This document shows positions 5,615-42,120 of a DNA stretch of 42,183 bases, piece by piece (within the stretch, counting starts at the first letter, position 1; each line of letters opens with the position of its first letter). The notes under the pieces were generated by a model, which saw nothing but the letters and a program-made list of their open reading frames with translations, did not search any database and was not told where the DNA came from. Made by a program: the position numbers and the translations under genes. Origin of the DNA: Bacteroidota bacterium (GTDB lineage: Bacteria > Bacteroidota > Bacteroidia > Bacteroidales > FEN-979); the NCBI GenBank assembly GCA_030706225.1, contig JAUZOW010000003.1, forward strand, positions 1 to 42,183, written 5' to 3'.

Positions 5615-6548
5615 TCACGAACTGCGAATGACATTTCTTCTGATATTCGGCAATTTCCTTGAGAAAGCCAATGCCCCAAGGATACATGAAAAGCCACCAA
5701 TCATTATAGTATAGGGAGCACCGATCAGTTCTGCCAGCTCGCCGGCAAGGATGCTTCCGAAAGGGGCAGTACCCATAAATGCCATGGTATAGAAGCTCAT
5801 AACACGACCTCGCTTATCATTATCCGACAGCGTTTGAAGCATCGTATTGCTGGATGCCATCTGAAGCATCATTCCAAGTCCTGTGATCACTAGTATGCCA
5901 AGAGAGAGATAGAATGACCTGGAAAAGGAAAAGCAAAGGAGCCCTATCCCAAAAACACCTGCTGCAAGCGGAATGATTTTCATCAATCCCAGTACACTTT
6001 TCCGGGATGCAAGATACAGAGCGCCTGCCAATGCACCAAGTCCGGTCGCGCCAATAAGGAAACCGAAGGTATGTGAGCCGCCGTGAAGAACTTCTTTTGC
6101 GAAGACCGGCATTAGTACGGTATAAGGCATTCCCATCAAACTGACCAGGGCAAGGAGAAGGATAATATATTTGAGCGGTACATATCCCAATACATAGGAA
6201 AATCCTTCTTTCATGTCTTTCAATACACTGGTCTCTTTCCGTATTTTGTTCTGTGGAGGGATTCTCATCATCAGAAGAGAAATGATCACGAAAATATAAC
6301 TGATGCCATTAATCAGAAAACAGATTCCTTCCCCGGTGAGGAGCGATCAGAAAAGTAGGGATCTGTCCGGCAAATCCAACGATACCAAGCATCAGCGCAG
6401 ATCCGGTCAAATGATACACCAGCCAGGGAGTTGCAATCCGCTGGATCCAGGTTCCGATCAGAGAAATACCCTGTCCGCCGAAGAAAAGCCTATAGTTTCG
6501 GTACTTTAACGATCGGAAAGTGACCTTAAGGCCAAAATCGGATTTCAT
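5615..6548 (-). pseudogene. MFS transporter disrupted by an internal deletion and frameshift near 6340
   Basis: The N-terminus from ATG 6548 (MKSDFGLKVTFRSLKYRNYRLFFGGQGISLIGTWIQRIATPWLVYHLTGSA...LIAP) joins out of frame to LTGEGICFLINGISY and the C-terminal half. The region carrying MFS motif A and several N-domain helices is missing. Confidence 0.8.
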
Positions 6549-6681
6549 CTTTATTAATCCACGGGTTTGAATAATGAGTCTGCAAAAATACCAAGAAAGG
6601 ATATTGAAAATCGAAAAGTAAAAGAAGGATGAGGAAATCATATAAAATTTTAATTTTACATAAACAAACAACCCGGTCCAT

Positions 6682-8472: not shown

Positions 8473-8499
8473 ACACTGGATATCAATCAGATACTAATT

Positions 8500-8552: not shown

Positions 8553-8645
8553 ACGATATTAGGGGTTCTTGTTTCCATAACGTAATTTTATATAAAATAA
8601 TCTCACATAGGTATATTGTTTTATCATTTAAACAACGGAAATACA

Positions 8646-11600
8646 ATGAAAATAAGAAATTTTTTATGTATGCTGGCACTGGTTGTGCCGGGATTGTTTT
8701 ATGCTGAATTCGTTCATGCACAATGGAATACAAATACTTACGTCAACCTGATGATTTCTTCCTTATCCGATGATGATCAGCAATCCATAGCTACCACAGA
8801 TGGCAAAACATGGATCGCTTTTTACAGTCAGAATGGTAGTGACTATAATATGAGGGCACAATTGATCGATGCAAACGGAAATAAAATGCTGGGAACGGAT
8901 GGGATGCTTGTAAGCAGCCAGCCTACGGGATCAGCGACCTTTGTTTTTAATGTATGCATTGATGCCTCCAATAACCTGATCATTGCATGCCAGGATGAAC
9001 GTTCGGGAGGAGATCAGGCAGTGTTGTACAAAATTTCCCAATCCGGTACCCATTTATGGAGTTCTTCGGGTGTAATTCTGGGATCCGGTCTTGCTCCTTA
9101 TCCTGCTGTTTTATCGACAGGTGAAGTGGTTGTGGCCTGGAATGAGAGCAACAGCAATACGTTAAATATTCAGAAAATAACTACTTCCGGAACGCTTGCC
9201 TGGTCTACTCCGGTTCAGGTCATGGTCGGAACATCGACAACAACCCGCGGGCAAATTTTTCCCTGTACAGGCGGGAAGTTCAGTATGGTATTCCAGAAAA
9301 GAAGTTATGGGATCTCCACGACACTTTATGCCCAGATGTTTGATAACAACGGAACTTCCCAGTATACTGCAGTTCAGATATGTAATGAAACTACCAGCGG
9401 CGCCCGGTATTATTCAATTACAGGAGAAGGGGATGTTACCTATTTCGGATATTACAGTTCATCAAGCAATCGATTTAACTCCTACATTCAGCGCATTAAT
9501 GCCGACGGGAGTCTTCCCTGGGGAATAAACGGATCTCATTTCAATACAAGTACCAGCTCCGGCGACAATTACCAGGTAGAGACCAATATCGCGCAAACCA
9601 ATGGCTCTTCCTATATATGGGCAGTTGCCACTTTTTGTGATCCGAATCAGACCATTTATGGCGTTTATGTGCAGAAATTTATCAAAACAACCGGAGCACG
9701 GCAATTTACCGATCAGGGGAAAGTGGTTTATGCCGTCAGTGCCAATTGTGACAGGCAGGAAGGAGATATTGCCCTGGTTTCGGATACTCCAATGTTCATG
9801 AGTTATGATGTCTCGGAAAAGATCTATGCAACCCGTTTGGATGCTTCAGGAAATTTCGTCTGGAATCCATTCAGGGTTGAAATCAGTTCGACCACAGCCA
9901 CTGCTTCGGTCCCGAAAATGAGATACGGATTTACTCCCGACGGGCCTAACCGCTGTGCCGGCGTCTGGACGGAAAACAGAGGTTCCGGCTATAGAGGTTA
10001 TGCACAGGGAATTACCATAGGAGGACTTATCGGCCTTCACGTAGCTACCCAGAATAATGTTCCGCCTGTTATTTCTACATCCGGGGGAACGCTACAAATG
10101 GTCGATACAATAATCCCGGCAACCGCCAGCCAGAGCGTTACATGGAGCATTGTTCCCGGAACAGGACAGGCATCTATCAACACGACCGGTTTGGTTACTG
10201 CCATTTCCAACGGCACAGTATGGGCTAAAGCTGTGGCTGTACAGGATGTTACATTGAAAGATTCCCTGATGATCACAATCTCAAATCAGAGTTCCCCTCT
10301 CGTCACAACTACTGCAGCTACCAATATCGGACTTTACACTGCTACAGTCAACGGGACTGTCAACGCCAATAATTTCACCTGTACGGTGACGTTTGACTGG
10401 GGACTTACCACATCATATGGAAATACAGCAACTGCAACCCCACCGACAGTCACCGGAAATACCGTTGTACCGGTGCTTGCAAACCTTTCAGGACTAACAA
10501 CGAATACGGTGTATCATTTCCGGTGTAAGGCCACAAACTCCTACGGGACTACTTACGGACAGGACCTGACTTTTACGACTGCCTGCATTCCGGTGGGCGC
10601 TGCAGGACCGATAACCGGGCCGGCCAGTGTCTGTGCCAACTCGACAGGTAAAGTATATTCTGTCGATTCAGTATCCAACGCGACTTCCTATCTCTGGACA
10701 CTCCCATCCGGAGCATATATTACCAACGGACAAAATACACGGACCATTACCGTTACTTTCGGCGCTGTTTCCGGCAACATTTCTGTCTCCGGATCCAACG
10801 GATGCAATAGTGGCACATCCTCTTCCCTTGCTGTCACAGTGATTCCATCACCTGTACCGACGATAACCGGACCGAATTCCGCTTGCGTAAGCACGAATGC
10901 TGTCACCTATTCTACGGAAGCAGGAATGAACAGCTATGCATGGACAATCTCTTCCGGAGGAACGATCATTTCAGGCACCGGTACCAATCAGATTTCTGTT
11001 CAATGGACGGCGGCAGGATCTCAGTCGCTCACAGTGACCTATGCTTCTCCGGAAGGATGTACACCGTTTGCTCCCGCTTTTCTGGGAGTTACGGTAAATG
11101 CGGTTCCGGATCCGGCCGGAGCTGTTACAGGCCTTTCAACCGTATGTGCGGGACAGCAAGGAGTGGTATATTCCATTGATTCAGTTGCCAATGCGATAAG
11201 CTATGTCTGGAATGTTCCTACCGGAGGAACCATCGCTACCGGACAGGGCACCAGCTCAATTACCGTGAATTATGCTAATACTGCAACATCCGGTAATGTC
11301 ACCGTTTATGCTTCCAATTCCTGCGGCGACGGCCAGTCATCTTCCATGCCGGTTTCAGTTAACCCGATACCTCCTGCACCGGTAATCACTCTGAATTACA
11401 TGACGATACTGTCCAGCAATACTGCCACAGGAAATCAATGGTACAAAGACGGCTCTGCTATAACCGGAGCGACAGGACAGACCTGGAATTGTCAGCTAAC
11501 CGGTAACGGCTGGTACTGGGATGTTGTTTCACTGGAAGGTTGTTCGTCAGATACTTCGAATAATATTTATGTGATTGTCGAAGGAATCGGAAATTACCCG

Positions 11601-11855
11601 GAAAATACTTTCAGTATTTATCCGAATCCAAGTAACGGAAGGTTCTTCATTCTTGGAAACGGAAGTATTTCAGGGAATTTCGATATGTATGTGATAAATT
11701 CAATCGGAGCAAAAGTTTATTCCGCGAAGGATATAAATATCAACCGCCGGACACCGGCCACTATAGATCTGAGTTCTCTCACAACAGGACTCTATTCGGT
11801 CATTCTGCAGAACAACAATATCTGGATTATTAAGAAGGTTCTAATAGAAAAATAG
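8646..11855 (+). CDS. Large T9SS type A cargo protein with Ig-like (Big_2/FN3/PKD-like) domains
   Basis: Signal peptide MKIRNFLCMLALVVPGLFYAEFVHA from ATG 8646, Thr/Ser/Gly-rich Ig-like repeats (GPITGPASVC...WTLPSG-type) and CTD IYPNPSNG...GLYSVIL...KKVLIEK. Confidence 0.88.
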   Translation: MKIRNFLCMLALVVPGLFYAEFVHAQWNTNTYVNLMISSLSDDDQQSIATTDGKTWIAFYSQNGSDYNMRAQLIDANGNKMLGTDGMLVSSQPTGSATFVFNVCIDASNNLIIACQDERSGGDQAVLYKISQSGTHLWSSSGVILGSGLAPYPAVLSTGEVVVAWNESNSNTLNIQKITTSGTLAWSTPVQVMVGTSTTTRGQIFPCTGGKFSMVFQKRSYGISTTLYAQMFDNNGTSQYTAVQICNETTSGARYYSITGEGDVTYFGYYSSSSNRFNSYIQRINADGSLPWGINGSHFNTSTSSGDNYQVETNIAQTNGSSYIWAVATFCDPNQTIYGVYVQKFIKTTGARQFTDQGKVVYAVSANCDRQEGDIALVSDTPMFMSYDVSEKIYATRLDASGNFVWNPFRVEISSTTATASVPKMRYGFTPDGPNRCAGVWTENRGSGYRGYAQGITIGGLIGLHVATQNNVPPVISTSGGTLQMVDTIIPATASQSVTWSIVPGTGQASINTTGLVTAISNGTVWAKAVAVQDVTLKDSLMITISNQSSPLVTTTAATNIGLYTATVNGTVNANNFTCTVTFDWGLTTSYGNTATATPPTVTGNTVVPVLANLSGLTTNTVYHFRCKATNSYGTTYGQDLTFTTACIPVGAAGPITGPASVCANSTGKVYSVDSVSNATSYLWTLPSGAYITNGQNTRTITVTFGAVSGNISVSGSNGCNSGTSSSLAVTVIPSPVPTITGPNSACVSTNAVTYSTEAGMNSYAWTISSGGTIISGTGTNQISVQWTAAGSQSLTVTYASPEGCTPFAPAFLGVTVNAVPDPAGAVTGLSTVCAGQQGVVYSIDSVANAISYVWNVPTGGTIATGQGTSSITVNYANTATSGNVTVYASNSCGDGQSSSMPVSVNPIPPAPVITLNYMTILSSNTATGNQWYKDGSAITGATGQTWNCQLTGNGWYWDVVSLEGCSSDTSNNIYVIVEGIGNYPENTFSIYPNPSNGRFFILGNGSISGNFDMYVINSIGAKVYSAKDININRRTPATIDLSSLTTGLYSVILQNNNIWIIKKVLIEK

Positions 11856-11900
11856 CTGCAGAGATTTCCGGAACAGGAAAATATTGCGATAATCCGGATT

Positions 11901-11975
11901 TTTCCGGCGTTCGTTGCCAGATTTCCGGCGTTTAATAAGTCGCTGATTTTTTTTCAAAACCGGGTTATATTTTTG
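11901..11975 (+). promoter_or_regulatory. LytTR-type direct repeat (TTTCCGGCGTT at 11901 and 11922, 21-bp period) plus -7 element TATTTTTG (11968-11975)
   Basis: Exact 11-bp direct repeat two helical turns apart, the geometry known for LytTR sites, upstream of a consensus TAnnTTTG. Confidence 0.65.
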
Positions 11976-11997
11976 TTCCTGTTTCACAGATTAATAA

Positions 11998-12111
11998 ATT
12001 ATCTCTGCCCTAGTTGCTGCATTATCATCTCTTCCACTGTCCCGGAAAATTAGGGGGGTTCATTAGCTCTATTAAAAGAGGGGAGGAACACCGGGGCAGG
12101 GCAGAGATAAT
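11998..12111 (+). ncRNA. Candidate structured ncRNA, copy 1 (family not recognised)
   Basis: 14-bp closing stem 11998-12011/12098-12111 and inner stem GTCCCGG 12039-12045/CCGGGGC 12091-12097 (U-G wobble favours the + strand). Sequence blocks are shared with 17030-17130; promoter upstream and terminator downstream. Confidence 0.7.
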
Positions 12112-12150
12112 CGATTTAAATTCCTCATTTTCCTTGTTTGTTATTTTGTC

Positions 12151-12183
12151 CCGTCACCAGAAAGGTGACGGAGCTTTTTATTT
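12151..12183 (+). terminator. Rho-independent terminator
   Basis: CCGTCACC-agaaa-GGTGACGG followed by agcTTTTTATTT. Confidence 0.75.
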
Positions 12184-12318
12184 AAACAGAAGAAAATCTG
12201 ATAAATGGGCATTTCTTCTTCCGGAATTTTACACAAAAGTGTAATGTTTCTGTAGACAAATGATACGCTGGCAGGCATTTTCAGGCTGATTAACTTTATC
12301 GCTCCTAAACCTTCTTGA

Positions 12319-13176
12319 ATGGATACCGAAAGTTTAATAGCCCAAATATATTCCCGGAAGCCTGAAAAAAAAACATCCTGCATCATGATTGATGATGAGG
12401 AATCAGCAAAGGAATCCTTTAAGGAAATCATAAGAGAATATTTTACAGATCGGCTTGTACTTCTTGGAACTGCCGGGTCCGTTAAGGATGGAGTAAACCT
12501 GGTCCGACATTACAACCCGGACATTATTTTCCTTAATATTGAACTACCGATAGAATGTGGATTTAAGCTGTTTAATTATTTCCCTGATTGTTCTTTTGAA
12601 GTCATCTTTACCACTTCTTTCAAACATTATACCATTGAAGCCATTAAATACTCTCCGATAGACTACCTTCTGAAACCCATCGATTATTTGGATCTGAAAA
12701 ATGTAATGGACCGGTATGAAAAAAAAATGCGGGATTATTCGGTTCGTCTGAAATTAGAAAAGCTCCTTTCAAACCTTTCTGCCGGAGCTGATATTAATCA
12801 GAAAGTAGCTCTTCCAATAACAGATGGATTTCAGATGGAAAAGATCAATGATATCATGTATTGCGAGGGAGATCTTAACTATTCCAGGATCCACACATCC
12901 GATGAACGAGTGTTCGTCGTTTCCCGGACGCTGAAAGAGATTGAAGGAATGCTGGATACTCCGTATTTCTTCCGTATCCATAAATCGTATCTTATCAACA
13001 TGAATTATGTTAAAATGTATTCCCGAAACGATAGCTATGGCATTTTCCTTGAAAATAATGAATGGCTGCCTGTTTCTACCCGTAGAAAAGATGAGTTTGT
13101 AACGGTTCTGACAAACTGGAGAAATAATATGGTGGGGAGAACGGGTAATGTCATGCATTCCTTGAATCATCATTGA
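12319..13176 (+). CDS. LytTR family response regulator with atypical receiver (phospho-acceptor Asp replaced by Asn)
   Basis: REC motifs IDDE, PDIIFLNIELP, DYLLKP and LytTR motifs SRTLKEIE, FFRIHKSYLINM, LPVSTRRK. Confidence 0.9.
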   Translation: MDTESLIAQIYSRKPEKKTSCIMIDDEESAKESFKEIIREYFTDRLVLLGTAGSVKDGVNLVRHYNPDIIFLNIELPIECGFKLFNYFPDCSFEVIFTTSFKHYTIEAIKYSPIDYLLKPIDYLDLKNVMDRYEKKMRDYSVRLKLEKLLSNLSAGADINQKVALPITDGFQMEKINDIMYCEGDLNYSRIHTSDERVFVVSRTLKEIEGMLDTPYFFRIHKSYLINMNYVKMYSRNDSYGIFLENNEWLPVSTRRKDEFVTVLTNWRNNMVGRTGNVMHSLNHH

Positions 13177-13388
13177 TCCCTGTTCCGGAAAAATTTCTTT
13201 GCCATACGGTTTCCCTGTTTCATGATAAATACCTGAATTTTTCTGTAACGAATCCATACTGAATTGAGGGTATTGAATTATATTTACATCACATTGCCTG
13301 AAATGAAGAAATACGGGTTCCGGTACATATAGGTAAAAAAATCACCCCGGCAGGGGAAACAGTATATTAATCATCAAAAACAAACATC

Positions 13389-14090
13389 ATGAAAAAGTAT
13401 GCTGCAGAGTTTATCGGAACCTTTTGCCTGGTATTTTTTGGCTGTGGTTCTGCAGTGATTGCCGGAATAACCGGTACCGGACCGAGTGGGATCGGATTAT
13501 TGGGCATCGCCATTGCTTTTGGTTTTGCTGTAGTTGCTATGGCATATGCTATCGGCAACATTTCGGGTTGTCATATCAATCCTGCTGTTACAATCGGAGT
13601 CCTTGCAGCCGGGAAAATGAGCTGGAAGGATGCAATCTTCTATATCATCGGCCAATGCCTTGGAGCAATCCTTGGTTCGGCTGTACTTTATCTCATTGTA
13701 TCTGGACGGCCAGGCTTTACAATGACTGAATGGGGACTTGGCTCCAATGGATGGGGACCCGGATATAACGGAGAATTCACGACAGTGAGCGCTTTTGTTA
13801 TTGAAACGGTCATGACCTTTATCTTCATTTTTGTAATTCTTGCCACTACTTCAAAAACCGGGAACACTACAATGGCCGGATTAGCCATTGGGGTCACACT
13901 GATGCTTATTCATCTTGTCACTATCCCGGTAACCGGTACATCCGTAAACCCTGCCCGTAGTCTTGGACCTGCTATCTTTGCCGGTGGAAATGCACTCGCT
14001 CAGCTCTGGCTGTTCATTCTTGCTCCCATCCTTGGCGCCTTAATAGCTGCCCTGGTTTGGAAAACAGGGTTTGAAAACGAAAAGAAATAA
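13389..14090 (+). CDS. aqpZ: Aquaporin Z (MIP family)
   Basis: AEFIGTF, ISGCHINPAVT and GTSVNPARS (two NPA motifs). Confidence 0.92.
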   Translation: MKKYAAEFIGTFCLVFFGCGSAVIAGITGTGPSGIGLLGIAIAFGFAVVAMAYAIGNISGCHINPAVTIGVLAAGKMSWKDAIFYIIGQCLGAILGSAVLYLIVSGRPGFTMTEWGLGSNGWGPGYNGEFTTVSAFVIETVMTFIFIFVILATTSKTGNTTMAGLAIGVTLMLIHLVTIPVTGTSVNPARSLGPAIFAGGNALAQLWLFILAPILGALIAALVWKTGFENEKK

Positions 14091-14111
14091 CCATTAAATG
14101 GGGAAGGACCT

Positions 14112-17030
14112 ATGAAAAAAACTTTTAAAATCATCGGAATTTTCTTTGCTGTTGTTCTCGTATTGTTCCTTTTTTTAGTTCTTTCCCCTTTTATTTTCAG
14201 GGAGAAATTTTCTGAAATAGTTAAAAATACCGCCAATAAATCCCTAAAGACGGAAATGAACTATTCGAAACTGGATATTTCATTTTTACGCCATTTCCCC
14301 AATCTTACCATTTCACTGGAAGATTTCTCCCTGAAATCTTCGGCTCCCTTTTCAAGAGACACCCTCATCAGTGCCCGGGAGATTTCCTTCGGCATTAACC
14401 TGGCCAGCATTTTCCATGGGCCTGTCCGGATCGATAAAGTTTATTTAAACCGTGGACGTATTGTTCTGAAATACAATGAAAAAGGTGCATCGAATTTTGA
14501 TGTGGTCAGATCTTCTTCAGATACTGTAAAAACTGCTCAAACAACTCCTGCCGGGATTGCTAATATAAAAATTGAGCATATTATTGTATCCAAAACCAAC
14601 CTGATCTACAGCGACCCTTACATTCCAATGGAGATTAAAGTGCAGGGCCTCAATTACAGTGGGAAATGCGATATCACGCAGGACATCCTTCACCTGAAAT
14701 CAAGAGTGAGGATTGATTCCATTTCCGTCAGGTATGACCAGTATCAAATTGTCAGGTCAAAGCCGGTCAAGGCTAACCTGACTACCAGTATCAACCTGAA
14801 TTCTTTCGATATGAAATTTGAAAAGAATGATCTTCATATCAAGGATATTCCTTTTGAATTCCGGGGGGAATTTAATTTCCGGAAAGGCGGATACGCGTTT
14901 TCGTTATCCCTTTATTCGACAATGGGGGATGAATATCTGGGAGGGTATCTCTGGCTGATCAGCGAAAAAAACCTTTGGATCTATGTCAAAGCCGGAGCTA
15001 AGGCTAACCTTGAAAACTGGGCGAAGGGATTTGGAATTCGTGATGTTGATCTGAAAGGACTCTTTACCCTGAAAGTAGATGCTGAAGGAGAATATATTAC
15101 CGGACAAAATCCCGAAAGCAGAAAACCAGATACCATCCCTCTGAGCATTCCTAAATTCAGTGTGTCTTCTGATCTGAAGAACGGATATCTTCATTTCAGA
15201 AAAGTTCCGCAGGCAATTTCTAACATTTCCTTCAACCTGACTGCATCCTGTTCCAATAACGATTACCGTACCGTAAACCTGCAATTGGAAAATCTTAAAG
15301 CCCGGTTCCTGAAAAACCAGATAGATGGCTATATCCGGGTTAATGGAATGGATCAGTTGCCTGTGGATGCCAGGGTGACTACTCATCTCGACCTCTCCGA
15401 ATTAAAGCAGGTCGTCCCGCTTGACAGCATGGATGTCAAGGGAATTCTGGATCTGGATCTTTCGGTAAAAGGCAATTATGCTCCGGAGAAGAAGTTGTTT
15501 CCACTTGCCAAGGTGAATATTGGACTTCAGAACGGATCGGTTCTCACAAAATATTACCCCCATCCGGTGGAGGATATCCAGGCTTCGGCAATACTTATCA
15601 ATCAGACAGGGAAGCTGGCAGATACCAAAATCAATCTTGATCCCCTTTCCTTCCGTTTTGAAGGGAATCCATTTGAAATCCATGCAAATCTTTCAAATCC
15701 TGAGAATCTGGATTATGCCGTAACGGCAAATGGATCCATAGATGTCGCAAGTATTTATAAAGTTTTTTCCCGGGAAGGAATGGATTTGAAAGGCTTTATA
15801 GCTGCCGACCTGAACCTGAAAGGACGCCAGAGTGATGCAATGGCCGGCCGGTATGAAAAATTGCACAACACAGGCAAACTGGTACTTCGTGATATTGCTT
15901 TTACTTCTGAATTTCTTCCCAAACCCTTTGTTGTAAAATCGGGGATATTCCGTTTTGAGAACGATAAGATTTGGTTTGACAAGTTTGTAAGCCGGTATGG
16001 AAATTCCGATCTGACCATGAACGGCCATCTGTTCAATGTACTGAATTACCTGCTGGTTCCCAAACAAAAGCTAAAAGGGAGCTTCGACCTGCATTCCGGA
16101 TATCTGGTAGTGGATGAATTTTTAGCTCCGGAAACGACAACATCGACGGCTCCGAAATCTGCCTCGTCATCTGAAGCAAAGAATGCATCTCAGGCTCCGG
16201 AGGGAGTTATTGTAATCCCGGATGATCTGGAGATCGGATTGAAAGCGGATGTTGGGAGGATAAGTTTTCAGAAACTGAATATTAAAGATCTGGATGCAGC
16301 GGTGGAAGTCAGAGATGGGATATTACATCTCAAATCCATGAGTTTCGATGTGATCGGTTGCAAGGTTAATATGGATGCTACTTACGGAAGTATCACTCCG
16401 GTGAGTGCCTATTTTGATTTTCATGTCAAAGCGGAAGATTTTGATATTAAAAAAGCATACGATGAAATTGAACTTTTCCGGAACCTGACCACTGCGGCCG
16501 GGAAATGTGAAGGGACCGTTTCTCTGGATTATTCACTTAAGGGGAAACTGAAAAGTGGGATGGAACCCATTTATCCGTCTCTTGACGGCGGAGGAACCCT
16601 TTCCCTGAAAAAAGTAAAAGTAATGGGCTTAAAGCTTTTTACTCAAATGAGCAAAAACCTGGATCGGGAAAAGATCAATAATCCGGATCTTTCCAAAGTG
16701 GAAATAAAAACCACGATCAAAAATAATGTCATTTCCGTTGAAAAAACAAAATTGAAATTCGCCGGTTTTCGTTTTAAAGTGTCAGGGGAGACTAATTTTA
16801 ACGGAAGCCTGAACCTTAAAGCCCGGTTGGGGTTACCGCCTCTCGGTATTTTCGGGATTCCTATCCGGATCCTTGGGACACAGGATAAGCCAAAATTTAA
16901 ATACGGTCGGGGAAATAATGATGAATCGGTAGAAGAAACGCAATATTCTGATACCATTCCTGCAGATGTACTTCAAAAGATTAAAAATGTTAAAGAAGAA
17001 GATCTGAAAGATGAAACGCCTGAAAAATAA
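14112..17030 (+). CDS. AsmA family / AsmA-like C-terminal region protein
   Basis: N-terminal membrane anchor, FLRHFPNLTISL motif and a long beta-rich body typical of Bacteroidota AsmA-like proteins. Confidence 0.8.
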   Translation: MKKTFKIIGIFFAVVLVLFLFLVLSPFIFREKFSEIVKNTANKSLKTEMNYSKLDISFLRHFPNLTISLEDFSLKSSAPFSRDTLISAREISFGINLASIFHGPVRIDKVYLNRGRIVLKYNEKGASNFDVVRSSSDTVKTAQTTPAGIANIKIEHIIVSKTNLIYSDPYIPMEIKVQGLNYSGKCDITQDILHLKSRVRIDSISVRYDQYQIVRSKPVKANLTTSINLNSFDMKFEKNDLHIKDIPFEFRGEFNFRKGGYAFSLSLYSTMGDEYLGGYLWLISEKNLWIYVKAGAKANLENWAKGFGIRDVDLKGLFTLKVDAEGEYITGQNPESRKPDTIPLSIPKFSVSSDLKNGYLHFRKVPQAISNISFNLTASCSNNDYRTVNLQLENLKARFLKNQIDGYIRVNGMDQLPVDARVTTHLDLSELKQVVPLDSMDVKGILDLDLSVKGNYAPEKKLFPLAKVNIGLQNGSVLTKYYPHPVEDIQASAILINQTGKLADTKINLDPLSFRFEGNPFEIHANLSNPENLDYAVTANGSIDVASIYKVFSREGMDLKGFIAADLNLKGRQSDAMAGRYEKLHNTGKLVLRDIAFTSEFLPKPFVVKSGIFRFENDKIWFDKFVSRYGNSDLTMNGHLFNVLNYLLVPKQKLKGSFDLHSGYLVVDEFLAPETTTSTAPKSASSSEAKNASQAPEGVIVIPDDLEIGLKADVGRISFQKLNIKDLDAAVEVRDGILHLKSMSFDVIGCKVNMDATYGSITPVSAYFDFHVKAEDFDIKKAYDEIELFRNLTTAAGKCEGTVSLDYSLKGKLKSGMEPIYPSLDGGGTLSLKKVKVMGLKLFTQMSKNLDREKINNPDLSKVEIKTTIKNNVISVEKTKLKFAGFRFKVSGETNFNGSLNLKARLGLPPLGIFGIPIRILGTQDKPKFKYGRGNNDESVEETQYSDTIPADVLQKIKNVKEEDLKDETPEK

Positions 17031-17130
17031 ATCTCTGCCTGTCCCGGCTCCCCTCCCCATTTGCAGAACCTGATTGTCTTGTGAAGCCGGGACTTATGGA
17101 AGAGTTGTCAAATTGTTTGAGGCAGAGATT
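17030..17130 (-). ncRNA. Candidate structured ncRNA, copy 2 (homolog of 11998-12111, opposite strand)
   Basis: The reverse complement reads aATCTCTGCCt..CTCTTCCA..GTCCCGG..GGTTC..GGGGAGG..CCGGGAC-aGGCAGAGATt. It has an 11-bp closing stem and an 11-bp inner stem whose U-G pair forms only on the - strand. Confidence 0.68.
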
Positions 17131-17337
17131 CTTTTTTGAAATTTTTAAAAATTATTTTTAAAAATTAAAAGTCGGAAAATATTTTACAAGGATTCTCAAA
17201 TATTCATTATTTCGATGGAAACCATTAAAATTGTTCAATATAGATTCAATTTTCTTTAGGAATTTTGTATTATTGCTTAAAAAGAATTAAAATGTTGGTC
17301 AATTATTATTTTTTTTTAGGAAGAAAATTGATTTGCC

Positions 17338-18120
17338 ATGGGGGAGAAAATATTGAAAGTGATCCTGATCGATGATGAACCTCAGGCGATTTCAGTCCTT
17401 GAACAAATACTACTCAATTATCCTCGTTTAAAAATATGCGGAAAAATTACAGATCCCGGAATAGCGATGTCGGTGATCCGGGATATCAAGCCTGACTTGG
17501 TTTTTCTTGATATTGAAATGCCTGGGAAAGATGGATTTGAGATTCTTAAGGAAATCAATGACCTGGGGTTGAATCCGTGGATTATTTTTGTGACAGCCTT
17601 TGATCAGTTTGCAATTCGTGCTCTCCGTTCGGCAGCCTTTGATTATCTTTTAAAGCCTGTTGACCTCGAGGAACTGGATAATGCTATAGTCAGGCTTTTC
17701 CGGATGCTTAGCGGAAATTCCCCGGAAAATGATGATAATCCCCTTTCTGAAAAAACAAAAAAATTGATCGTTGAAACAACGGGGCACGGGAAAATAAAAA
17801 TTTCAACCGGTAACGGATTTATATTCCTGAGGCCTGAGGATATTTTCTATATTCTTGCAGATTGGAATTATTCCGAAATCTATTATAGCCAGTATCATCA
17901 CGATATTGTGACGACCAATCTGGGATCCATTTGGAAAATGCTCCCCTCCGGGTCATTTTTCCGGATAACCCGGTCTCTCATCGTCAACCTGAAATATCTT
18001 TCCAAAGTCAACCGGAAAAAGAGGCAGATAATAATTAACAAAGACGGAGATGAATGCTCATTTACAATTCCTCTTTTGAATCTTCGCAAGATGGAGCGTT
18101 TTCTGGATTCTAACCATTAA
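17338..18120 (+). CDS. LytTR family response regulator (canonical receiver)
   Basis: IDDE, PDLVFLDIEMP, FVTAFDQFA, DYLLKP and LytTR FFRITRSLIVNL. Confidence 0.92.
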   Translation: MGEKILKVILIDDEPQAISVLEQILLNYPRLKICGKITDPGIAMSVIRDIKPDLVFLDIEMPGKDGFEILKEINDLGLNPWIIFVTAFDQFAIRALRSAAFDYLLKPVDLEELDNAIVRLFRMLSGNSPENDDNPLSEKTKKLIVETTGHGKIKISTGNGFIFLRPEDIFYILADWNYSEIYYSQYHHDIVTTNLGSIWKMLPSGSFFRITRSLIVNLKYLSKVNRKKRQIIINKDGDECSFTIPLLNLRKMERFLDSNH

Positions 18121-41106: not shown

Positions 41107-42120
41107 ATGAAAGAAGAACAAAAAGGGGAGATCCTGATATACCAGTCGGAAGAAGGCAGCACTAAAATTGAGGTGCGCCTCCAAAATGAAAATATTTGGC
41201 TGTCACAACAGCAAATGTCGGAGCTTTATCAATCATCCAGAACCAATGTGGTTGAGCACATCAAACACATTTACGAAGAGGGTGAATTAGAAGAAAGCCC
41301 AACCTGTCGGAATTTCCGACAGGTTCAGATGGAGGGTAGCCGTAGTGTGGAAAGAGAAATTCCCTTCTATAACCTCGATATGATAATATCCCTTGGGTAT
41401 CGAATCAAATCGAATATTGCCACAAAATTTCGAATCTGGGCCACCGAACGCATAAAAGAATACATTGTAAAAGGTTTTACAATGGACGATGAACGCCTTA
41501 AACAAATAGGTGGTGGCGGCTACTGGTACGAGTTGCTTAACCGTATCCGCGATATACGTTCGTCAGAAAAGGTCTTATACCGACAAGTACTCGATTTATA
41601 TGCTACCAGCGTGGATTATGATCCTAACACACCCGAATCGCTTGAATTCTTTAAAATAGTACAAAATAAGCTGCATTATGCTGCACACAGTCATACCGCA
41701 GCCGAAGTCATATACCAGCGGGCCGATAGCGACAAACCATTTATGGGGCTAACTGTTTTTCCGGGCGAACAACCCACTTCAAAAGATGTTACGGTTGCTA
41801 AAAATTATTTAAACGCCAATGAGTTGAAAATCCTGAATAATTTGGTGTCCGGATATTTCGACTTCGCTGAAATTCAGGCCATGAAACGCAAGCCAATGTA
41901 TATGAGCGATTACATTAAACAATTGGATAATATTCTGTCGTCCACAGGCGAAAAGCTATTACCCAATGCCGGAAGCGTAAGCCATGAACAGGCTCTGGCT
42001 AAAGCTAAGGCTGAATTTAAAAAATACCAGGCTAAAACGCTATCGCCGGTCGAAAAGGACTACTTGAAAAGCATAAAATTATTACAGAAAAAGATCGGCA
42101 AGAAAGGAAGCAAGAAATGA
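41107..42120 (+). CDS. RhuM family (virulence RhuM-like DNA-binding) protein
   Basis: IWLSQQQMSELY, YNLDMIISLGYRIKS, FRIWAT, RIRDIRSSEK, VQNKLHYA and AKNYL. Preceded by a TAACTTTG -7 element (41072-41079). Confidence 0.88.
   Translation: MKEEQKGEILIYQSEEGSTKIEVRLQNENIWLSQQQMSELYQSSRTNVVEHIKHIYEEGELEESPTCRNFRQVQMEGSRSVEREIPFYNLDMIISLGYRIKSNIATKFRIWATERIKEYIVKGFTMDDERLKQIGGGGYWYELLNRIRDIRSSEKVLYRQVLDLYATSVDYDPNTPESLEFFKIVQNKLHYAAHSHTAAEVIYQRADSDKPFMGLTVFPGEQPTSKDVTVAKNYLNANELKILNNLVSGYFDFAEIQAMKRKPMYMSDYIKQLDNILSSTGEKLLPNAGSVSHEQALAKAKAEFKKYQAKTLSPVEKDYLKSIKLLQKKIGKKGSKK

Follow-up and report, generated by a model that had tools for sequence, protein, structure and literature searches.

A nested-hairpin element in two diverged copies beside LytTR regulator genes of a Bacteroidota genome: a candidate small structured RNA

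Introduction

A 42,183-nt stretch of a Bacteroidota draft genome (assembly GCA_030706225.1, contig JAUZOW010000003.1; hereafter the window) contains two intergenic elements, each beside a gene for a LytTR response regulator, which a first-pass annotation had proposed to be diverged copies of a novel structured RNA. The locus raises the question of whether the pair is best explained as RNA, as a palindromic DNA repeat or as a terminator. The best reading is a tentative one, a lineage-specific pair of small structured RNAs tied to the LytTR regulators, to which we assign a probability of roughly 0.4. As RNA, the element would represent an unrecorded class of pseudoknotted small RNA linked to Bacteroidota LytTR regulators, and would provide a concrete regulator-RNA pair in a phylum that has many such regulators, often kinase-less and little investigated; as a DNA repeat or terminator, it would be an intergenic palindrome of an ordinary kind, specific to its lineage. 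For now the element is a clearly defined candidate rather than a discovery, with all the evidence coming from two sequences of a single draft genome.

Two diverged copies of a nested-hairpin element

Reading of the sequence revealed six blocks in the same order in both copies (Table 1), with 46 of 47 positions identical, including all 29 of the interior block positions, and confirmed every block and spacer length given in the first-pass annotation. The linkers of the two copies differ through insertions and deletions, and the two long ones align no better than shuffled sequence, with 94% and 80% of 2000 shuffles scoring at least as high as the real alignment, in keeping with the claim that the blocks are kept and the linkers are not. 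The identity of the blocks beside randomised linkers indicates that the blocks are constrained, and that the duplication is old rather than recent. One proposed block did not hold up: GGTTC lies at different offsets in loops of 34 and 28 nt, where a shared 5-mer is expected by chance. On sequence grounds, the element is real and under sequence constraint.

Each copy is bounded by perfect terminal inverted repeats, of 14 bp in copy 1 and 11 bp in copy 2. No ORF is conserved across the copies, the small ORFs that overlap them not being common to both, and the differences in linker length are non-multiples of 3. The G+C content of the elements is 47-49%, within 600-nt stretches of 35-39% G+C, and no compositional island was found around them.

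Table 1 Positions of the element, its parts and neighbouring features in the window
Feature	Position	Strand	Details
Copy 1	11998-12111	+	Nested-hairpin element; sequence reading
Copy 1 closing helix, 14 bp	11998-12011 with 12098-12111	+	ATTATCTCTGCCCT with AGGGCAGAGATAAT
Copy 1 block	12029-12036	+	CTCTTCCA
Copy 1 inner helix, 7 bp	12039-12045 with 12091-12097	+	GTCCCGG with CCGGGGC; one U-G pair
Copy 1 GGTTC	12057-12061	+	
Copy 1 block	12080-12086	+	GGGGAGG
Copy 2	17030-17131	-	Second nested-hairpin element; sequence reading
Copy 2 closing helix, 11 bp	17130-17120 with 17040-17030	-	AATCTCTGCCT with AGGCAGAGATT
Copy 2 block	17104-17097	-	CTCTTCCA
Copy 2 inner helix	17093-17087 with 17047-17041	-	GTCCCGG with CCGGGAC
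Copy 2 GGTTC	17070-17066	-	
Copy 2 block	17058-17052	-	GGGGAGG
PKD/T9SS protein gene	8616-11855	+	Copy 1 starts 142 nt past its stop codon
Direct repeat, 11 bp	11901 and 11922 (11901-11932)	+	TTTCCGGCGTT; 21-bp period
-7 box	11968-11975	+	TATTTTTG; exact TAnnTTTG match, 22 nt before copy 1
Intrinsic terminator	12151-12180	+	8-bp stem (6 G-C), 5-nt loop, T-run; begins 39 nt after copy 1
RR1, REC + LytTR response regulator	12319-13176	+	Pfam: LytTR 5.3e-21, Response_reg 1.1e-09
AsmA-family protein gene	14112-17030	+	TAA stop 17028-17030 overlaps last base of copy 2
RR2, REC + LytTR response regulator	17338-18120	+	Pfam

Predicted fold and choice between RNA and DNA

Both copies, with a core of ~105-114 nt, are predicted to form a closing helix of 11-14 bp, enclosing an inner helix of 7 bp and a 5' internal loop of 26-28 nt. 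This outer and inner architecture, which matches the fold described in the first-pass annotation, is the minimum-energy fold of copy 2 and lies 1.1 kcal/mol above the minimum for copy 1, with fold z-scores of -2.4 and -4.7 for the two copies. MAFFT misaligned the copies, and a covariance-model alignment was used instead. In the structure-guided alignment, 98% of cells pair in the proposed structure, whereas shifting the partners by 1-3 columns leaves 44-57% paired.

The sole two conserved unpaired blocks, CUCUUC and GGGGAG, can form six of six RNA pairs, two of them G-U. The predicted duplex energy is -7.0 kcal/mol on the strand named in the first-pass annotation versus -2.9 kcal/mol on the opposite strand, so the pseudoknot pairing suggested there is possible on the named strand only. 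The U-G pair in the inner helix of copy 1 favours the same strand. Together, this complementarity and the U-G pair weakly favour RNA over DNA, and they are the only evidence that does so.

Two-sided changes between the copies number three in these two sequences, all within the outer helix, and consist of CCC/GGG versus CC/GG and a flanking T-A versus A-T pair. The compensated indel described earlier is therefore real, but compensation extends to no other stem: the inner helix carries a single U-A/U-G change, and the pseudoknot is invariant at six of six pairs. Covariation scores were matched or beaten by 58 of 500 shuffles, two sequences being too few to reach significance, and the claim of selection on an RNA fold was not substantiated. 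The stems are kept in sequence, with no compensatory change in the inner helix or pseudoknot, and such stems fit a DNA-recognised element equally well.

A DNA-level palindromic repeat would be either what remains of a small non-autonomous mobile element or a protein site (for a recombinase, or for a regulator of the response regulator genes). Its terminal inverted repeats and subterminal blocks would then be recognised in either orientation, as DNA in double-stranded or hairpin form. We regard this explanation as somewhat unlikely. It would account for the stems being kept in sequence rather than through compensation, and for the related heptamers CTCTGCC, CTCTTCC and the complements of GGGGAGG and GGCAGAG, which occur two per side of the element. 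It fits less well with CTCTTC and GGGGAG, which match at 4 of 6 positions as a DNA inverted repeat versus 6 of 6 as RNA, and with the randomised linkers, which imply an old duplication followed by selection and not a recent insertion.

Gene context and orientation

The genes around the element all lie on the + strand, in the order PKD/T9SS protein, copy 1, terminator, RR1, aquaporin, AsmA-family protein, copy 2 and RR2. Both copies are 5' of REC-LytTR genes, as the first-pass annotation had recognised, with copy 2 read on the strand opposite RR2. RR2 is 30% identical to RR1 by BLASTP, and full-length REC-LytTR matches number eight in the genome, three of them in the window. A domain screen of 33 of the 34 window ORFs of at least 90 aa found no histidine kinase domain. 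Other features of the window, namely T9SS sorting domains, SprB and CHU_C, are Bacteroidota-like.

The element interior is opposite in orientation, relative to the flanking genes, between the two copies. Despite this inversion, the conserved outer block stands 210 nt before the regulator ATG at copy 1 and 208 nt before it at copy 2, and the sequences in between (12108-12319 and 17129-17338) are unrelated to each other. The near-equal spacing looks independent of orientation, and may be a coincidence. The flipped interior is not predicted by the RNA reading and counts against it; a palindromic repeat accommodates it, its symmetrical outer repeat keeping its place before each regulator.

The same arrangement would suit a small inverton, in which the outer repeats of 9-14 bp are crossover sites, the interior of about 85 bp flips and the two loci were assembled in opposite states; each regulator gene would then have a structured RNA, or else its complement, within its leader. 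Bacteroidota commonly have phase-variable invertons, and here a short segment flanked by perfect inverted repeats occurs in opposite orientations at equivalent positions. We nevertheless consider an inverton very improbable, since no invertase was found in the window, the two loci differ in sequence, so that their opposite orientations are not two states of one locus, and no conserved promoter box lies inside: the linkers differ, and TAnnTTTG is absent from both copies.

In other genera of the family, RR2 relatives (45-54% identity; loci L106-L118) are preceded by a gene that reads, from translated motifs, as a histidine kinase; here its place is taken by the AsmA-family gene together with copy 2. 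If the preceding gene is a kinase, RR2 would be a genuine orphan whose locus has been rearranged, and such a rearrangement is a point in favour of the palindromic repeat. Upstream of RR2 relatives at 29 loci, perfect inverted repeats with arms of 9-13 bp, spaced ~100 nt, proved a false lead, lying inside the upstream gene; they appear to come from the codons of the kinase N and G1 boxes. The regions upstream of RR1 relatives, also at 29 loci, are mostly short intergenic stretches and contain no nested hairpin of this design. At one of these, in another genus (L140, 973-1096), there are two copies, spaced 87 nt, of a palindromic unit of ~36 nt, CCCCTCTCC..GGAGAGGGG with a GGGGGTGAGGT tail, which looks like a REP-type unit unrelated to the element.

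None of 11 AsmA orthologs in family genomes has a LytTR gene or a similar hairpin downstream. The adjacency of aquaporin and AsmA-family genes is kept in just one other genus, and no empty insertion site was definable from the comparison of AsmA synteny. A transposon spanning 11998-17131, with the copies as its inverted ends, was rejected, with no transposase and no flanking duplication found and with a cargo that would include the aquaporin-AsmA pair syntenic in another genus.

Three further observations concern the window itself. The 5' part of the AsmA-family gene contains a perfect 14-bp inverted repeat (TTTCAGGGAGAAAT; 14195-14336), whose arms are separated by 106 nt and extend to 18 nt at 94%. 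Adjacent ORFs of 224 and 120 aa at 5615-6671 (-) match the MFS_3 profile at 194-399 and 5-62, and look like a single transporter gene interrupted by a frameshift or a stop codon. At the far end, 41107-42120 (+) encodes a RhuM-family protein (Pfam E 1.9e-108); RhuM-family genes often mark mobile or phage-related islands.

Copy number and distribution

The pattern ATCTCTGCC-N60-130-GGCAGAGAT occurs at exactly these two sites in the 2,657,491 bases of the genome, a 2.66-Mb draft in 241 contigs, and the reversed control gave no match. An nhmmer search of the same genome returned only copies 1 and 2 (E 2e-29 and 4e-23), with the next best match at E 3.2, and its 128 other perfect inverted repeats (at least 11 bp, 70-150 nt span) include no comparable family. 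At neither copy was a target-site duplication detected, the flanks not being direct repeats on reading of the sequence. The genome therefore holds two copies without duplications, and not the hundreds of copies with target-site duplications that the first-pass annotation had named as evidence against its interpretation. For a palindromic mobile repeat, the lack of any third copy, even a degenerate one, is unfavourable, as are the missing target-site duplications and the absence of transposase, recombinase or invertase domains from 33 screened window ORFs, a screen that distant invertases may have escaped.

Two covariance models were built. The first, from copy 1 alone with the sequence given twice (R1), scored copy 1 at 154 bits and copy 2 at 26.9 bits, with an E value of 1.6e-4 in the window. 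The second (R2) was made from both copies, with copy 2 aligned by structure through R1, and scored them at 129.8 and 108.3 bits. A match of 20.9 bits elsewhere in the genome (C205) was rejected as a homolog after its alignment was read.

Searches with R2, of the kind that the first-pass annotation had proposed for Bacteroidota genomes, yielded no credible homolog in 89 other genomes of the family, none of the same genus, or in 150 genomes of the order. The sub-threshold family matches G105 and G019 (23.5 and 22.3 bits; E 0.29 and 0.46) were rejected, the blocks being absent from both. The single sub-threshold match in the order (G199, 22.8 bits, E 0.45) agrees with a linker and block of copy 1 at 20 of 22 positions but lies antisense within an ORF, which looks like an ECF sigma factor gene, and was likewise rejected. 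The 3' half of the element, with up to 3 mismatches allowed, gave two chance-like matches and no credible one in 400 genomes of the class. Exact block patterns were found in 24 stretches of GTDB species-representative genomes, 33 of JGI metagenomes and 6 viral contigs, none of them real: no pattern match from these collections scores with R2, and CCGGG follows GGGGAGG within 16 nt in none of the 33 metagenome matches.

That the element is present just twice, at sites separated by 5 kb within a single genome, with no further copy or credible match in the collections searched, argues against the RNA reading. Absence from all related genomes searched is what a recently arrived palindromic repeat would show; plasmid and phage records gave no BLAST match to the element, which speaks against such a repeat.

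The element also appears to belong to no known RNA family. A covariance-model search of the whole window against Rfam 15 at gathering thresholds gave no match, in agreement with the first-pass annotation. Below threshold, the top score was 18.9 bits around copy 1 (gathering threshold 44) and 23.3 bits around copy 2 (gathering threshold 80), and the sub-threshold models around the copies were all eukaryotic snoRNA or miRNA, or unrelated sRNA. ARAGORN found no tRNA or tmRNA in the window. Three further candidates were set aside on their general features: an HDV-like ribozyme (the 3' linker has no shared C, and there is no P4-like hairpin), an integron attC site (no symmetric spacers of the R/L-box kind) and a sigma-54 promoter with upstream activator site (GG-N10-GC is absent between the elements and the genes). 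Literature searches on LytTR-linked RNA motifs and on candidate structured RNAs of Bacteroidetes turned up no such motif. The supplementary motif lists of such surveys may include one, though published structured-RNA motifs of this type are usually deposited in Rfam.

Promoter-like and terminator signals

Copy 1 is preceded by an exact match to TAnnTTTG, which we take to be the Bacteroidota -7 promoter consensus, and is followed by an intrinsic terminator that folds as a separate hairpin in 11982-12182. TAnnTTTG has 32 matches in the window, a total no higher than in shuffles, and comparison with the ORF map places boxes at 8495, 3654, 23803, 23956, 31238, 31250 and 41072 just upstream of genes. 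The direct repeat TTTCCGGCGTT ends 36 nt before the -7 box of copy 1, with its proximal unit centred ~55 nt upstream of the presumed start site. This 11-mer occurs six times in the genome and in tandem only at 11901/11922, and by analogy it is a possible, putative LytTR-type activator site. The heptamer TTTCCGG is found three times, at 11865, 11901 and 11922, the latter two within the direct repeat; on contig C33, a further REC-LytTR gene has a single 11-mer ~470 nt upstream.

No equivalent direct repeat was found for copy 2. On its strand, 17133-17337 contains no exact -7 box, and two TAATTTTT near-matches lie in an A+T-rich stretch. In the same region, TAATTTTTAAAAA occurs twice in tandem (17141-17167, -), 15-28 nt upstream of copy 2, each unit one mismatch from TAnnTTTG. 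Copy 2 is flanked by an A-run and a T-run, which gives a hairpin followed by a U-run on either strand.

The latter feature raises the alternative that the elements are long-hairpin intrinsic terminators that close the AsmA-family and PKD/T9SS genes and insulate the regulators, copy 2 acting bidirectionally and the interior having no separate role. Copy 2, flanked by T-runs and lying against a stop codon, could be no more than a terminator, and this counts against the RNA reading: its closing helix begins at the AsmA stop, with TCTTTTTTG after it on the + strand and TTTATTTTT after it on the - strand. Both copies, moreover, lie 3' of a long + strand gene and have strong closing helices. As an account of the pair, termination is decidedly unlikely, given that copy 1 has no T-run on either strand, stands 142 nt past the upstream stop codon and has its own canonical terminator 39 nt downstream. 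Nor would it explain why the interior blocks are identical at 29 of 29 positions when the linkers around them are randomised, and none of the 128 other perfect inverted repeats in the genome forms a family like this one.

Discussion

The first-pass interpretation is, overall, partly supported. In the small-RNA reading that we prefer, copies 1 and 2 would be paralogous genes for a lineage-restricted structured RNA, encoded on the strands originally proposed. The loop block CUCUUC would pair with GGGGAG just 5' of the 3' strand of the inner helix, forming an H-type pseudoknot; alternatively, the two blocks may be exposed recognition sequences. The copy 1 RNA is predicted to start from the -7 box at 11968-11975 and to end at the terminator at 12151-12180, giving a transcript of ~200 nt, and partial read-through into RR1 would make it a leader as well. 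The copy 2 RNA would be shorter and divergent from RR2, ending at the U-run past the closing helix. A LytTR regulator may drive at least copy 1 through the direct repeat with 21-bp spacing, so that a regulator and a neighbouring RNA effector would be coupled as are AgrA and the P3 transcript RNAIII. The blocks, helices and strand asymmetry, and the signals around copy 1, are observed; transcription, the pseudoknot and LytTR control are the parts of this scheme that we infer.

An extended form of this proposal is that kinase-less LytTR regulators are each paired with their own pseudoknotted RNA, activated via direct repeats and serving as effector or feedback arm, an agr/RNAIII-like logic that would have arisen independently outside Firmicutes. 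We hold this to be quite improbable. In a bolder variant, the outer repeats would let the RNA cassette flip, producing a phase-variable circuit.

Comparison with known systems

Bacterial miniature inverted-repeat elements such as Correia/NEMIS, ERIC and RUP are intergenic sequences of ~100 bp that form long hairpins and can terminate transcription; their copies number from tens to hundreds, and target-site duplications are frequent. The element resembles them in its length of ~100 bp, its intergenic position and its terminal inverted repeats, and differs in having two copies, no duplication, and interiors that diverge outside short blocks. With the invertons of Bacteroidota, as generally known, it shares short inverted repeats that flank a segment of ~85 bp upstream of genes, with the copies in opposite orientation; unlike invertons, it has no internal promoter box and no nearby invertase.

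Small riboswitch aptamers and other RNAs with an H-type pseudoknot inside a closing helix share with the predicted fold the order a-b-a'-b', a first loop of 4-5 nt and a third loop of 5 nt, and copy 1 has, like pseudoknotted riboswitches, a terminator and then a gene downstream. The variable middle loop of 28-34 nt is unusual, no Rfam family matches and covariation is not significant. Copy 2, in contrast to a riboswitch, has no downstream gene on its strand, and the context shared by the copies consists of regulators only, with no ligand-related genes.

For the agr system of Staphylococcus aureus, PMC4227749 describes a pair of direct repeats, centred near -60 at both the P2 and the P3 promoter, as bound by AgrA, with P3 making the regulatory RNA RNAIII. 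The element has no sequence or structural relation to RNAIII, as judged by the absence of an Rfam match, and unlike agr the locus has no kinase and no peptide-signal genes, carries two candidate RNA copies, one per regulator, and belongs to a different phylum. The likeness lies in the arrangement. Here too a LytTR-type regulator gene adjoins a structured-RNA gene, in this case a candidate one. As PMC4227749 describes for agr P3, a pair of direct repeats precedes the promoter, the nearer one at around -55 to -60, and copy 1, by its putative promoter and repeats ~21 bp apart, has the layout expected of a LytTR-activated gene of the agr P3 type.
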